DNA from: an uncultured bacterium
Lineage (GTDB): Bacteria; Armatimonadota; Abditibacteriia; Abditibacteriales; Abditibacteriaceae
Assembly: GCA_963843795.1 (NCBI GenBank)
Contig: CAWJLW010000006.1
Coordinates: forward strand, 620,001-684,000
Reading direction: 5' to 3'
Length of the DNA stretch: 64,000 nt
Made by a program: the position numbers and the translations under genes. The notes beneath the pieces were generated by a model that worked only from the letters and a program-made list of their open reading frames with translations, did not search any database and had not been told where the DNA came from. Shown here piece after piece: positions 992 to 63,071 of this stretch (the stretch's first letter is position 1; every line of letters starts with the position of its first letter).

Positions 992-1176
992 CCTGTTAAA
1001 TTCACCTCGTAATTAGATTTCCAATCAGTGCGCCGTCTTACATTGTAAAACATAATCGCACCCGACGCGCATTTGGCGCAATTTGCACAGCACAATTTCG
1101 CATCACTTGCATAAGTCGTAGCAAACAATTCGCCTTTTGTGCCGTGCAAGTACTTGCAACACGATTTTCATACCAA

Positions 1177-1208
1177 AAACGGCGGCCTTCAATTGAAGGC
1201 CGCCGTTT
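1177..1208 (-). terminator. Intrinsic terminator downstream of glnA
   Basis: Perfect inverted repeat AAACGGCGGCCTTCAA|TTGAAGGCCGCCGTTT with a T-run on the minus strand, about 30 nt after the glnA stop. Confidence 0.75.
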
Positions 1209-1240
1209 CTATTTTGCAGGAACTTGCACCCGAATTTAAA

Positions 1241-2698
1241 TTACACGTCAAAGTACAACGAGAATTCGTAGGGATGCGGGCGCAGACGCAGCGCGTCCAC
1301 GTCGCCACGCTTGAGGTCGATATACATTTCGATCAAGTCGTCGGTGAAAACGCCACCGGCTTTCAAGAATTCGTTGTCTTCTTCCAATGCATCCAACACG
1401 GCTTCCAAGCTTCCGGGCACGGTCGGGATGCCTTCTTTTTCTTCCGGCTCCAATTCATACAAATCCTTGTCGAACGGATCGCCTGGCTCGATTTTGTTTT
1501 TGATGCCATCCAAACCGGCCATTAACTGAGCGGCCAAAGACAAATAAATGTTGCCGGTTACGTCAGGCGTGCGGAATTCGATGCGCTTGGCTTTGGCCTT
1601 GTCGCCGGTGAGGGGAATACGCACCGCTGCCGAGCGGTTGCCCTGAGAATACAGCAGGTAAATCGGCGCTTCGTAGCCCGGAACCAGACGATGATACGAG
1701 TTGGTGCTGGCGTTGGTGAAAGCCAGAACGGCGGGAGCGTGCTTCAAAATGCCGCCGATATACCAACGCGCCAAATCGGACAGGCCTGCGTAGCCGTTGG
1801 CATCATACATTAGCGTATCGCCATTCTTCCACAAAGATTGATGACAGTGCATACCGGTGCCGTTATCACCGAAAATCGGTTTGGGCATAAAGGTCGCGGT
1901 CAGCCCATGACGCGCGGCGGTATTTTTGACGATGTACTTGTGAATCATCATCTTGTCGGCCATTTTTTCGATGGTGTCGAGAGAAATGCCGATTTCACAC
2001 TGTCCGCCAGAGCCGACTTCGTGGTGATGCACGTCAACTTCGATGCCGGCGTCCATCAGGTTGCGCACGATGTCGTTGCGCACTTCGGTCAAGGAATCGA
2101 CGGGAGGAACTGGCACGTAGCCGCCTTTGTTGCGCGGACGACGGCCCGAATTCCATTCTCCGGTATCGGGATCGTAAACCGGTGCGCCATTGTGCCAATC
2201 GCCTTCCAATGATTCCACTTTATAATGCGAGTAATGGCCGTCGAGACCGCCAGCCACTTTATGTCCGCCAAACGAGACGCCGTTGAACAGGAAAAATTCG
2301 GCTTCAGGGCCAAAATAAGCGGTATCGGCGATGCCGGTGCTTTCCAGATAAGCGACAGCTTTGGCGACAACGCCGCGCGGATCGCGCGAATAGGGTTCGC
2401 GGGTGAGCGGATCGACAATGCTGGCGAAAACCGAAAGCGTCGGAGTGTCGTAAGCCGGATCGATGAAAGCCGATTCGGCATCGGGCAGCAACAACATGTC
2501 CGATTTGTCGATAGTTTGAAAGCCGCGCACGCTCGAACCGTCGAACATTACGCCGTTGGAAAAAAAGTTTTCATTCAATTGAGCTTCGACGGGATAAGTC
2601 AGGTGCTGCATATCGCCCAACAGGCCGGTGAACTTCAAATCAATAAATTGCGCGCCGGCTTCTTCGGCCATTTGAATAACGGATTTGGCATCTGCCAT
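1241..2698 (-). CDS. glnA: Glutamine synthetase type I
   Basis: FDGSS, GPEAEFF, HHHEV, MPKPIFGDNGTGMHCHQSL, NRSAAVRIP, RIEFRTPD; adenylylation-type 'DLYEL'. Confidence 0.97.
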   Translation of the reverse strand: MADAKSVIQMAEEAGAQFIDLKFTGLLGDMQHLTYPVEAQLNENFFSNGVMFDGSSVRGFQTIDKSDMLLLPDAESAFIDPAYDTPTLSVFASIVDPLTREPYSRDPRGVVAKAVAYLESTGIADTAYFGPEAEFFLFNGVSFGGHKVAGGLDGHYSHYKVESLEGDWHNGAPVYDPDTGEWNSGRRPRNKGGYVPVPPVDSLTEVRNDIVRNLMDAGIEVDVHHHEVGSGGQCEIGISLDTIEKMADKMMIHKYIVKNTAARHGLTATFMPKPIFGDNGTGMHCHQSLWKNGDTLMYDANGYAGLSDLARWYIGGILKHAPAVLAFTNASTNSYHRLVPGYEAPIYLLYSQGNRSAAVRIPLTGDKAKAKRIEFRTPDVTGNIYLSLAAQLMAGLDGIKNKIEPGDPFDKDLYELEPEEKEGIPTVPGSLEAVLDALEEDNEFLKAGGVFTDDLIEMYIDLKRGDVDALRLRPHPYEFSLYFDV

Positions 2699-2821
2699 AA
2701 AATTAGGTCTCCTGAATTACTGGATGTAGAATGTGAAAGGTAGAATTTGGCGGGTGCAAGTACTTGCGGGGTGTTGCGCTTTCACGGCGCGATTTCCACT
2801 TTCCAAATTCCATCTTCGGTT

Positions 2822-3160
2822 TTACAATGCATCTTCGTCGCGGTCGCCGGTGCGCACGCGAATCACTTGTTCGACTGGACGAACGAAGATTTTGCCGTCG
2901 CCAATTTCGCCGGTGCGCGCAGCAGTCGCGATGGTATCGACAACTTCTTCGACCTGACCTTCGCCAATAACGACTTCGATTTTCACTTTCGACAGCAGGT
3001 CAACGGTGTATTCACTGCCACGATAGCGCTCGACATGACCTTTCTGACGTCCGCAACCGCGCACATCGGTGACAGTCATGCCGACGACGCCGATGTCGGA
3101 CAACGCACTTTTAACGTCTTGCAATTTGTGGGGCCGCACCACGGCTTCAATCAATTTCAT
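2822..3160 (-). CDS. glnB: Nitrogen regulatory protein P-II
   Basis: 112 aa; [14 protein letters not shown]-loop, [17 protein letters not shown]. Confidence 0.95.
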
Positions 3161-3320
3161 AATTCTCCTTGCACTCCGCGAAGCTAAAACCTCGACGGAC
3201 GAAACTCAATTTTCCAATCCCAATACAGATTAAATCTTTCCACCGCTTTTGTCACGCGGCCCCGCTTGGTTCTTCGCAATGCGTTCGAGCGGAAAACGCG
3301 CCACATTTTAGGAACTCCAT

Positions 3321-60996: not shown

Positions 60997-61051
60997 AAGA
61001 CTCAGTGTAGCAACGCGCGCGCCACATCATACGATTCTGCAATTGAGACGA

Positions 61052-61087
61052 AAAAAACGCTTTGCAAGTACTTGCAAAGCGTTTTTT
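61052..61087 (-). terminator. Sigma-factor gene terminator centred on GCAAGTACTTGC
   Basis: AAAAAACGCTTTGCAAGT|ACTTGCAAAGCGTTTTTT. Confidence 0.78.
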
Positions 61088-61107
61088 ATTGGTAAAAAGA
61101 TGATTTT

Positions 61108-62169
61108 TTAAGCCAGACAAACCGTGTGGCCCGAATGCGAAAAGCTGGGATGTTGCAGCACAGTTTCCTGCAAATTGGCGCAGCCTTTCAGTCGACGCAT
61201 GGCGGTTTTCTCGATCTGGCGAATACGCTCGCGCGTCAATTGCATTACATCGCCCACCTCGTCCAGCGTGCGCGCGCAATTGGTGCCATCCAATCCGTAG
61301 CGTAGCGAAAGGACTTGCGCTTCGCGGTCGGTAAGCATATCCATCGCGCGTTGCAGTTCATATTGCAGCGCGCTGCGCGAAGCCATATCCTGCGGCGATT
61401 GGGCGCGATAATCTTCGATGAATTCGGCCAAGACCGAATCGTCTTCTTCACCCATTGAGGCATCGAGAGAAATCGGCTCGCCGCCGCGCTCCATCACTTG
61501 CACGACTTTGTTCGGCGTCCATTGCAAATTGAGAGCAAGCTCTTCGAGCAACGGCTGACGCTGCAAGACCTGAGTCAAGACAACGCGCGCCCGTTCAAGC
61601 TGCGCCACGGCTTCGACCATATGAACCGGTAAGCGCACGTTGCGACCATTTTCGGCAATCGAACGCATCACGGCCTGTCGAATCCAATAGGAAGCATAAG
61701 TCGAGAATTTAAACCCTTTGCGATAATCGAATTTCTTAACCGCGCGAATCAAACCGATGCTGCCTTCTTGAATCAGATCCGACATTTGCAGCGTGGTGCC
61801 CGCGAAGCGGCGGCATTTGCGCGCAATGTTGGCTACTAAACGCAAATTGCATTCGGTCATGCGGGTAAAAGCTTCCTGATCGCCCGCTTCGATGCGGCGC
61901 GCCAGTTCAATTTCTTGCGCACCCGAAAGCAAAGGAAAACTTTGCACGGTCCGCCACCACAATTTGATGGCGGCGTCATCAGATAAATCAACGGTAGCCG
62001 CCAACGAAGCGCCACGCGCGGCACTTTCAATGTTGGTAGATGCTGCCTGATGTGTCGTTGTATCGTGAAATTTGGCGTAATTAGACGAGGTGTTCGGGGA
62101 AGATGTCTGCTGCGTGGAAACAGCGTAGTCGCGTGGCGAAGAAAAGGCGGTTTCAATGGTTTCGGTCAT
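61108..62169 (-). CDS. Sigma-70 family RNA polymerase sigma factor (RpoD/RpoS-like, no region 1.1)
   Basis: NLRLV, DLIQEGSIGLIRAVKKFDYRKGFKFSTYASYWIRQA, RLPVH, TLDEVG..LTRERIRQIE. Confidence 0.92.
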   Translation of the reverse strand: MTETIETAFSSPRDYAVSTQQTSSPNTSSNYAKFHDTTTHQAASTNIESAARGASLAATVDLSDDAAIKLWWRTVQSFPLLSGAQEIELARRIEAGDQEAFTRMTECNLRLVANIARKCRRFAGTTLQMSDLIQEGSIGLIRAVKKFDYRKGFKFSTYASYWIRQAVMRSIAENGRNVRLPVHMVEAVAQLERARVVLTQVLQRQPLLEELALNLQWTPNKVVQVMERGGEPISLDASMGEEDDSVLAEFIEDYRAQSPQDMASRSALQYELQRAMDMLTDREAQVLSLRYGLDGTNCARTLDEVGDVMQLTRERIRQIEKTAMRRLKGCANLQETVLQHPSFSHSGHTVCLA

Positions 62170-62477
62170 AACGCTCCGCTCCTTTGCGAGGGCGCTACAG
62201 CGTTGATCACTTTCAACGTTCAGCGTTGCGCTCGCATTAATAGTTCGTGCGAAACCCGACCTGTTTCGTAACTGATTGTAAATGAACTTTTTGTAAATTG
62301 ACTTTTGGCTGTGCAGAAAAAATGCAGCAGTTCGTGCCCAACAAACCGTTTGGAAGCATTAATTTTCTCCACTTAAAACTTTAACAAGCGCTTGGCAAAG
62401 TGCCTATCAGGAAACTCCTGACTTTTTTCTCAGGCATTTCACCAGAATTTTATTAAAAAATAAACTATTTAGTAATT

Positions 62478-62912
62478 TTATTCAGTAATTTCAGAGGGCG
62501 CCTCGACCCACCATTCGCCGTCGGGCGCGACTTCTTTTTTCCAGATCGGCACACGCTTTTTCAGTGTGTCGATAATCCAGCGGCACGCCTCGAAAGTTTC
62601 GCCACGATGCGCGCCCGCGACCGCAATCATCACGCTCGCTTCACCAATTTTTAGGTGCCCCAGACGGTGACTAATCGCGCAGCGTATCGGCCACTGTTCC
62701 TGAGCCTGCGCGGCGATTTTTTCCAATTCGCGCCGTGCCATCGTCTCGTAACACGAATATTCGAGATAAGAAGTCGCGCTGCTTTCGCCGGTTTCGCGCA
62801 CACCGTAGTCGCGCACCGTGCCGGTGAAGGTTGCGATAGCGCCCGCGCCCGCGTGGGCAACGGCGTTGATTAAAGCGTCCAAACTCAATTTTTCCGTCGT
62901 TAATTCGATCAT
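62478..62912 (-). CDS. moaE: Molybdopterin synthase catalytic subunit
   Basis: GAIATFTGTVRD, LEYSCY, HRLGHL, HR..F, IDTLKKRVPIWKKE. Confidence 0.92.
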   Translation of the reverse strand: MIELTTEKLSLDALINAVAHAGAGAIATFTGTVRDYGVRETGESSATSYLEYSCYETMARRELEKIAAQAQEQWPIRCAISHRLGHLKIGEASVMIAVAGAHRGETFEACRWIIDTLKKRVPIWKKEVAPDGEWWVEAPSEITE

Positions 62913-63071
62913 GCTTTTAATGGCATCACAAAGAAAATGAGCGCTGCAAGTACTTGCGACTGCTTTCGACATTCGCTGAGCCAAAAATTCGCCAGTTTTC
63001 ATCGAATCGAATCATGCATGTGTGCGAAAAAAGCCCTGCAAGTACTTGCGCGGCTTTGTTGTAATTGAATC

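Follow-up and report, generated by a model that had tools for sequence, protein, structure and literature searches.

A Highly Iterated 12-bp Palindrome and Its Dialects in the Abditibacteriaceae: A Candidate DNA Uptake Sequence

Introduction

Why would a bacterial chromosome spell out the same short palindrome dozens of times within a few tens of kilobases? The question is raised by a 64-kb stretch of DNA (hereafter the window; G000:C6:620001-684000) on the 3.6-Mb main contig, C6, of an uncultured member of the Abditibacteriaceae (genome G000; 4.3 Mb, 92% complete), in which the 12-bp palindrome GCAAGTACTTGC occurs in 43 exact copies between positions 1146 and 63049. An initial annotation of the window had counted about 43 copies, 34 intergenic and nine genic, and read them as a lineage-specific, genome-wide signal for uptake, methylation-directed repair, recombination, or chromosome organization. 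To our knowledge, sequence-specific DNA uptake is established in two bacterial families only. The purpose of HIP1, the highly iterated palindrome of cyanobacteria, has been open for three decades (PMC13756078). We propose that the palindrome is a genome-wide signature word that may function as a DNA uptake sequence, whose reader would be a component of the competence machinery built on type IV pili. On the genomic patterns described here, we give this reading about even chances.

Abundance and Authenticity of the Word

The count and the genic/intergenic split of the initial annotation were both reproduced with independent gene calls, made by our own script (3,409 genes in the genome, 85% coding): nine copies are coding and 34 lie outside genes, one of them at the edge of an open reading frame (ORF). 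None of 100 dinucleotide shuffles of the window contained the word. The genome-wide comparison with a Markov model that the annotation had called for gave 2,567 exact copies on all 11 contigs (597 per Mb, or about one per 1.7 kb), where 3.9 are expected from an order-5 model built on the motif-masked genome, a 650-fold over-representation. One-off and two-off matches number 506 and 371 (30 and 199 expected), and three-off matches are at chance level. Intolerance of change is about equal at all 12 positions, with both halves of the palindrome equally constrained, and the first two flanking positions show a preferred extension (T in 66%, C in 68%).

The closest named relatives of G000 are Abditibacteriota (leucyl-tRNA synthetase LeuS, 74%) and Abditibacteriaceae (methylase, 65–74%). 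A related organism (median protein identity 63.5%) has the identical 12-mer on its metagenome contigs, in contexts of the kinds seen in G000. A metagenome search with a 16-bp extension of the word returned at least 138 stretches, with flanks for 80, and many of the stretches listed come from one related organism of 60–71% GC. From these, 60 loci were kept (at least 3 kb, GC at least 0.575, at least three copies of AAGTACTT; overlaps and duplicates between assemblies retained), which were selected as word-bearing and so give no unbiased density. Parts of the window (41 of the 132 pieces compared) are also matched, at 99% identity or more, by contigs from run X1; as X1 could itself be the sample from which G000 came, it is not treated as independent evidence. 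The initial annotation had named two ways in which its reading could fail, an assembly or adapter artefact and confinement to this region. The former is ruled out by the related organism's contigs and the X1 matches, and the latter by the presence of the word on every contig. The over-representation of GCAAGTACTTGC is confirmed.

Origin in Place and Effect on the Proteome

In alignments of orthologues, the word arises as codon substitutions with the reading frame kept. It falls opposite an alignment gap at five of 61 aligned sites, against a background of 2.0%, and this small excess fits placement in variable regions. Sites turn over: the position of the AGTACT core is shared with G000 at six of 21 sites in G001, two of 15 in G009, and none of nine in G012. 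In 138 kb of aligned coding sequence from the metagenome relative (four-fold identity 0.47), AAGTACTT stands at the same codon position for 10 of 24 G000 sites, and the full 12-mer for three of 19. The word thus arose mostly in place, by in-frame substitution.

Its spread is also visible in the encoded proteins. The peptide QVLA occurs 560 times in G000 (21–127 in permutations), KYLQ 106 times (0–14), and ASTC 132 times (1–15), and the motif spelling is used in 423 of the 482 QVL-GC codon strings on C6. Proteome shaping and peptide enrichment of the same kind have been described for the USS (uptake signal sequences) and the DUS (DNA uptake sequences) of other bacteria (PMC2817400).

Distribution and Spacing

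The initial annotation had proposed inspecting the distribution relative to origin and terminus, and density proved even from one to the other: along C6 it is 608 per Mb at the GC-skew maximum and 647 per Mb near dnaA, and genes on the leading and lagging strands carry 0.209 and 0.213 copies per kb. The largest word deserts are insertion sequence (IS) elements, a type I restriction-modification locus, and foreign-looking DNA, with gene content judged by eye from N-terminal sequences. One end of the main contig (C6:3598000-3623414; 66.5% GC) has conjugation-type genes and no motif, and is likely foreign or mis-joined. A contractile-injection-like (phage-tail) cluster, recognized by eye in the same way, occupies C3:2634-27317 on a motif-poor contig.

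In total, 70% of the copies are intergenic. Those between co-directional genes number 1,231 (3.0 per kb), those between convergent genes 296 (4.2 per kb), and those between divergent genes 272 (1.8 per kb), with 748 copies inside genes (0.20 per kb) and 20 at edges or ends. The number of copies per gap levels off at about 0.6–0.8 for gaps of 60–800 bp in all three orientations (0.47–0.9 by bin), and gaps with two copies are rarer than a Poisson distribution predicts. Copies also keep their distance from one another: the median distance from a coding copy to an intergenic one is 1,048 bp (674 ± 32 bp at random), the coefficient of variation (CV) of spacing in G000 is 0.757 (0.842 ± 0.012 at random), and the pair correlation is 0.47–0.69 at 200–1,000 bp and about 1 beyond.

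Phased A/T Tracts Around the Word

On either side of the word, AA/TT/AT steps peak at about 15, 25, 36, 46, and 57 bp from its center, coding copies included, with a period of 10.5–10.7 bp. The amplitude in genes is 0.056, compared with at most 0.0065 in 60 random sets, and is five times the passive A-tract autocorrelation (0.011); at 30–72 bp the signal is 0.02–0.03, and the passive level is reached by about 70 bp. Because these tracts are phased and symmetric, the site is predicted to form the apex of a planar bend of roughly 120 bp. The genome of G000 also has a marked genome-wide A-tract periodicity of 10.5–11 bp.

The E. coli gyrase motif has a similar length and period (PMC6379681), and a strong gyrase site was considered. 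It was rejected: the length (about 130 bp) and period are similar, but the A/T tracts of the published consensus, read by eye from a supplement row, lie about 19, 38, 50, and 60 bp from the center (PMC6379681), 3–4 bp out of phase with those seen here. G000 has a type II topoisomerase pair, the only one found by pattern.

Terminator-Like Hairpins

A subset of copies is extended by perfect inverted arms. Arms of at least 8 bp flank 62% of the copies between convergent genes, 23% of those between tandem genes, 8% of those between divergent genes, and 1% of those inside genes, and of the 607 intergenic copies with perfect arms of at least 5 bp, 483 are followed by a T-rich tail. Three long-armed copies in the window have folding z-scores of -5.6 to -6.6, a fold that the coding copy compared with them does not have. 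In coding copies, the complementarity of left and right flanks is no greater than in shuffled pairs. Arm sequences vary from copy to copy, which points to individual terminators sharing a common tip and not to a copied element. About one quarter of copies are accordingly predicted to be the tip of terminator-like hairpins, as a secondary use of the word. The initial annotation had concluded from differing flanks that this is a short motif and not a copied element; the variable arms bear this out, although the flanks do have features in common, namely the preferred extension, the phased A/T tracts, and the arms.

Dialects in Related Genomes

The exact 12-mer is present in 0–3 copies per genome in 40 relatives, and AAGTACTT exceeds 100 copies in just two of 301 genomes of the phylum, G000 and G001. 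The core has a wider range: AGTACT occurs 2,813–4,733 times in six of 31 genomes of the class. These genomes carry dialects of the word, CAAAGTACTTTG in G001, WTCGAGTACTCGAW in G009, G015, and G019, and YGAGTACTCR in G012. Palindromes with an AGTACT core are thus found in six genomes, and an AGTAC core in seven, the seventh being G006, which belongs to the genus of G009 and G012 and has the non-palindromic word AGTACGGTCGA in 1,188 + 1,224 copies on the two strands, without bias. This word has 0–5 copies in the four other genomes searched; among 84 copies sampled in G006, 29 inverted pairs were counted. The phased flanks recur, more weakly and in similar register, in G009/G015/G019 and in G012, and are borderline in G001. 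Spacing is even in G009, G012, and G006 (CV 0.56–0.68, compared with 0.93 at random). Extension into hairpins is rare in G009 and G012, where arms of at least 10 bp flank two of 147 and none of 120 copies.

Other members of the family have words without the AGTAC core. The non-palindromic CAGCCACG has 2,676–3,503 copies in G007, G016, and G018, and in G016 is extended and arranged in inverted pairs that resemble GTAG-tagged repetitive extragenic palindromic (REP) elements; locus L201 carries it as well. In G020, the unrelated word CACAAAAAATGA has 2,295 copies (1,191 + 1,104), often in inverted pairs, and at most 25 in 26 other genomes. Two further candidates, both apparent palindromes, were set aside: TCGAATTCGA in G006 is merely the junction of inverted pairs, and CGATATCG in G004 is only mildly enriched (503 copies in 5 Mb). 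In all, 11 of 27 family genomes have a signature word, at 600–1,200 per Mb, and in samples of 30–121 kb from the other 16 no such word was found. In a PilT tree of 17 rows, with weak deep forks, the word-bearing G012 groups with the wordless G017 and G003; the tree shows a patchy distribution of words and no order of events.

Several observations accompany these dialects. Avoidance of AGTACT is extreme in G005 (one copy in 6.0 Mb), G008 (five copies), G011, G014, and several g2 genomes, in samples of which GTAC and CTAG are also avoided. In G000, it is other palindromes that are strongly and generally avoided (observed/expected 0.17 for CGGCCG, 0.18 for GTCGAC, and 0.47 for GATC). Small clusters of another genome's word, each on a single contig (C13, C64, and C212 of G042; C257 of G024; C30 of G017; C20 of G012), reflect either recent transfer or bin contamination. 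Twenty copies of the 12-mer lie on a 67.8-kb virus contig (G302, L518-L521), apparently between genes, with low GC and a GT...ACT extension; they resemble phage operator sites and seem to have no connection with this host. Multi-copy virus contigs in general were rejected as relatives of the system, as their low GC and different extension make them look unrelated. Among the named-genome matches listed for the 14-mer, 79 of 80 loci hold a single copy and are chance hits. In the literature covered, which excludes subscription papers, no report was found of the 12-mer, of a HIP with AGTACT, or of a relevant Abditibacteriota palindrome. The lineage-specific, genome-wide signal of the initial annotation is borne out by the counts in G000 and in its relatives.

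Candidate Readers

Machinery for DNA uptake is present throughout the family: ComEC in 27 of 27 genomes, a ComEA-type helix-hairpin-helix (HhH) protein in 25 of 27, DprA in G000, and a pilB-pilT-pilC-pilD-minor-pilin operon in every one of 21 loci retrieved, although contig ends truncate some of these. The pilus operon also encodes a giant PilX-like protein, whose Atlas look-alikes are PilX_N/DUF4900 clusters at 0.85–0.90. Four genomes with a word and 12 without differ in the net charge of this protein, which is higher by 17 in the former (permutation p 0.006), in a post hoc test with non-independent kin and uncertain start codons, and with G000 (split gene) and G006 (gene outside the fetched stretch) excluded. 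No motif-linked insert was found in this protein. In Thermus, a tip pilin is known to bind DNA (PMC6561018), and the PilX-like pilin is a weak lead for the reader of the word.

Among other DNA-binding proteins, G000 has a single orphan beta-class DNA methylase (L101:1483-2253, on C6), whose best solved relative is M.RsrI. The family has close orthologues in 22 of its 27 genomes, irrespective of a word, among them all seven with an AGTAC core; ten intact copies are in wordless genomes with almost no AGTACT, and the word-bearing G016 gave no close hit. The enzyme is also about 60% identical to methylases of Verrucomicrobia and Chlorobia. Searches of G000 found neither C5 nor D12 (Dam-type) methylases, no histone fold, and no TetR protein (PF00440; controls positive in 13 of 14), the genome being 92% complete. 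One ordinary HU with a basic tail is present. Of the IS200/RAYT family (RAYT, REP-associated tyrosine transposase), one fragment was found in G000, in a region of ordinary motif density, and none in G006.

Features of the Window

Copies of the word and neighboring features are collected in Table 1. The phosphoglycerate mutase gene is called as two overlapping ORFs; together with similar splits in the pilus operon, this suggests long-read frameshift errors in the assembly.

Table 1. Copies of GCAAGTACTTGC and neighboring features, in window coordinates.
Feature	Position	Context	Prediction
GCAAGTACTTGC starts 1-15	1146, 2756, 3507, 5879, 7424, 7665, 11529, 12388, 14752, 15768, 17060, 18141, 18151, 19200, 20087		
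GCAAGTACTTGC starts 16-30	22766, 22795, 22948, 26162, 29772, 29793, 34015, 34748, 35802, 40080, 40306, 44144, 44450, 46462, 47022		
GCAAGTACTTGC starts 31-43	49060, 49134, 51709, 51758, 52786, 55798, 57378, 58195, 58347, 59457, 61064, 62946, 63038		
12-mer, perfect 10-bp arms	3497..3528	between two co-directional genes	
12-mer as hairpin tip, 11-bp arms, A/T tails	5868..5901	3' of response-regulator gene	predicted two-way intrinsic terminator; fold z -6.0
Coding copy	7665..7676	in ABC-ATPase gene	
12-mer, 8-bp arms	14744..14771	after prepilin-type gene	
Two overlapping copies, 10 bp offset	18141..18162		
12-mer, 11-bp arms, A/T tails	19189..19222	after pyruvate dehydrogenase E1 alpha gene	predicted terminator
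Coding copy	20087..20098	in DUF11-repeat protein gene	
Coding copy	26162..26173	in large DUF11-repeat protein gene	no hairpin signal; fold z -1.0
Coding copy	34015..34026	in large DUF11-repeat protein gene	
12-mer, 10-bp arms	34738..34769	between convergent genes	predicted two-way terminator; fold z -6.6
12-mer, 10-bp arms, A/T tails	40070..40101		predicted terminator
Coding copy	40306..40317	in short called ORF 40088-40528 (weak gene call)	
Coding copy	44144..44155	in 1212-aa Calx-beta-like protein gene	
12-mer, 11-bp arms	46451..46484	just 3' of leuS	predicted terminator
Coding copy	47022..47033	in leuS; other codons there in aligned relative	
Coding copy	52786..52797	in GH16-like glycanase gene	
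12-mer, 11-bp arms	55787..55820	3' of Pup-ligase-like gene	predicted terminator
12-mer, 10-bp arms	57368..57399	between proteasome alpha and Pup-ligase-like genes	
Coding copy	58347..58358	in proteasome beta gene	
12-mer, 12-bp arms	61052..61087	3' of sigma-70 gene	predicted terminator; fold z -5.6
tRNA	11575-11647		
Cobalamin riboswitch	13625-13751	5' of prepilin-type gene	
Phosphoglycerate mutase gene	36619-38576	two overlapping ORFs	
Pup-proteasome cluster	55820-60996	Dop/PafA-like, alpha and beta subunits	

Discussion

If the word is an uptake sequence, the competence system built on the type IV pilus would include a specificity factor that prefers DNA of the same lineage, fragments with one copy would enter the cell better, and mutations that create copies would be fixed through repeated transformation (molecular drive). 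A single copy per fragment would suffice, which could account for both the saturation at one copy per gap and the 1-kb repulsion, and the symmetric phased tracts may pre-bend the site and thereby ease passage of a folded loop through the secretin. As a ready-made hairpin tip, the word could have been co-opted by terminators in the G000 lineage. Changes of the reader would give rise to new dialects, and where specificity was lost the word would decay.

The uptake reading is favored by a close match to the genomics of DUS and USS: dialects built on a core, inverted pairs, phased tracts, peptide enrichment, and even spacing. The word also shares with them a density without strand or replichore bias, an origin in place, scarcity in acquired DNA, use in terminators, and a host with competence machinery, although the last is not diagnostic. 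The DUS of the Neisseriaceae (10–12 nt, eight dialects, ComP receptor) likewise occur about once per 1–2 kb without strand bias, form dialects around a common core, serve as terminators in inverted pairs or hairpins, and occupy permissive intergenic and coding sites (PMC3630211); the words described here differ in sequence and phylum, are mostly perfect palindromes, include unrelated words, and are absent from some genomes. Pasteurellaceae USS have an invariant core and helically phased A/T tracts, for which a kinking model exists (PMC3458573), reshape the proteome and are absent from genes without relatives (PMC2817400), and are evenly spaced (PMC1939737). They are, however, asymmetric, with two tracts on one side, whereas the tracts here extend about 60 bp on both sides. 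HIP1 (GCGATCGC) and the alternate HIPs are likewise perfect palindromes iterated hundreds of times per Mb and spaced quasi-regularly, with replacement words in particular lineages and a suspected link to transformation (PMC4390886, PMC13756078). HIP1 raises transformation (bioRxiv 10.1101/2024.09.10.611283), a precedent for a palindrome that aids this process. Unlike HIP1, the word is longer (12–14 bp), AT-cored, and 70% intergenic in G000; no methylase tracks it, and one of its sister dialects is not a palindrome.

In strict terms, the word belongs to none of the DUS, USS, HIP1, SlmA, or REP families, and it works most like the first three. An actual DUS (CTG core) or USS (GCGG core) is non-palindromic, so the word does not qualify as either; it is neither GCGATCGC nor a GC-rich alternate HIP, and its host is not a cyanobacterium. 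What is special here is the presence of palindromic and non-palindromic dialects within one genus, together with motif-free sisters.

Several results weigh against an uptake sequence. Known DUS and USS are non-palindromic (PMC1939737), and a two-fold symmetry with equally constrained halves would be no less expected of a protein that acts as a dimer inside the cell. Phasing extends about 60 bp to either side, farther than the two tracts of USS. Competence genes do not track the words, being universal in a family of which 11 of 27 genomes have one; ComEA, with ordinary HhH domains, and the pilus operon are alike with and without the word, and comparison of the operons found no motif-linked pilin. 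The ComP profile (PF16732) gave no hit, but the search controls were likewise silent. Four unrelated cores within one family demand an unusually changeable receptor. The within-gene repulsion test was non-significant (138 near versus 157 far, p 0.29), although in the same test the nearest fifth is depleted (39 of 295, with 59 expected), so that at longer range the spacing signal may arise partly at the level of genes; the avoidance at short range is solid. Finally, the CAGCCACG genomes have no significant even spacing (CV 1.0 in G007, 0.76 in G016). Words of the family may therefore differ in mechanism, and with even spacing seen in G009, G012, and G006, only the AGTAC group is tied together by the evidence.

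An intracellular protein that bends DNA is the foremost rival, one that genomic data by themselves cannot tell apart from uptake, although we consider it appreciably less probable. On this view, a dimeric protein plentiful in the cytoplasm would bind at the word, bend or wrap about 120 bp there, and set out the chromosome in units of about 1.5 kb, marking the tips of loops or plectonemes or recruiting SMC or a topoisomerase. Such a protein would account well for the perfect two-fold symmetry, for symmetric A/T phasing far above random and passive levels, and for the one-per-gap saturation with 1-kb repulsion. Against it stand the lack of any histone-fold or TetR protein among the proteins found in G000, which has a single ordinary HU, and the phase offset from the E. 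coli gyrase consensus. An essential site is, moreover, hard to square with close relatives that are wordless in the samples taken, with the patchy tree, and with the non-palindromic dialect of G006. The initial annotation had likened the word to the SlmA site (GTGAGTACTCAC), also a 12-bp palindrome with an AGTACT core, and the G009/G012 dialect does share GAGTACTC with it. The analogy does not hold up: SlmA is a TetR-family protein with 52 sites in E. coli that are absent from the Ter region (PMC3020112), whereas G000 has thousands of copies, no Ter gap (608 per Mb at the terminus, 647 near the origin), and no TetR-family gene among those found.

A methylation product in the manner of HIP1, with an orphan methyltransferase marking the GTAC/AGTACT core and methyl-directed repair creating and keeping the sites, appears improbable. 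The word is palindromic, its density is similar, and alternative words in relatives recall those of HIP1, for which methylase-linked alternates are known (PMC4390886). The beta-class orphan methylase has close orthologues in all seven AGTAC-core genomes, and GTAC is under strong pressure in the family, with AGTACT occurring 1–33 times in several genomes of 4–6 Mb. But the methylase is also intact in ten wordless genomes and lacks a close counterpart in G016, no C5 or Dam-type enzyme was found in G000, one-off variants are rare at all 12 positions and not just the outer ones, and repair drive does not predict phased flanks. Contiguous non-palindromic words of 11–12 bp also exceed the length of known methylase sites.

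Less probable again, if by little, is a Chi-like purpose: the word would label DNA as "self" in either orientation, for recognition by an intracellular nuclease, recombination, or defense complex that spares or favors the labeled DNA. Even spacing, saturation, absence from new DNA, and fast changes of specificity are what a self-mark under conflict would show. However, no candidate enzyme was found, and phage mimicry was not seen: the multi-copy virus contigs are low in GC, with no common pattern of host-like genes. Known Chi sites are short, oriented, and strand-biased, unlike these words, and an oriented recombination signal is at odds both with a palindrome and with the lack of strand bias in the non-palindromic dialect.

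The last and least probable explanation, that a REP-like mobile hairpin (REP/REPIN), spread by a RAYT transposase of the IS200 family, has the word as its core, or else that the word is the lineage's preferred terminator loop, draws on the intergenic bias, the hairpins at gene ends with their T-rich tails, and the extended G016 word, which reads as a GTAG-tagged REP on one strand, but is largely refuted as the cause of the word by arms that are not copied between sites, by 748 coding copies made by substitution without insertions and with no flank symmetry beyond the profile, by divergent gaps as rich per gap as tandem ones, by the near absence of hairpin extension in G009 and G012, and by the lack of a RAYT that tracks the word.

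Of the four functions offered in the initial annotation, uptake therefore fits best and chromosome organization is possible; evidence for an enzyme matching methyl-directed repair was not found, and oriented recombination does not fit. The annotation's reading as a signal stands, but it had missed four features: co-option by terminators, phasing in the flanks, the rule that governs spacing, and dialect words in relatives.

Implications

Should the uptake reading be correct, the Abditibacteriaceae would become the third bacterial family known to take up DNA sequence-specifically, and in no earlier case would the tag have changed among close relatives between perfect palindromes, a non-palindromic dialect, unrelated words, and absence, so that HIP-type and DUS-type words might form one class; we advance this broader view tentatively, as a little short of an even chance. 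Word-bearing and wordless sisters (e.g., G012 and G017) constitute a natural experiment for exposing the reader, and sister genomes with and without the tag would offer a route to a new, retargetable DNA receptor. If a chromosome organizer were at work instead, the same sites would lead to an undescribed sequence-specific bending protein with thousands of regularly spaced targets. The words are, in addition, barcodes of their species that are of use in binning and would probably help to make these bacteria transformable.

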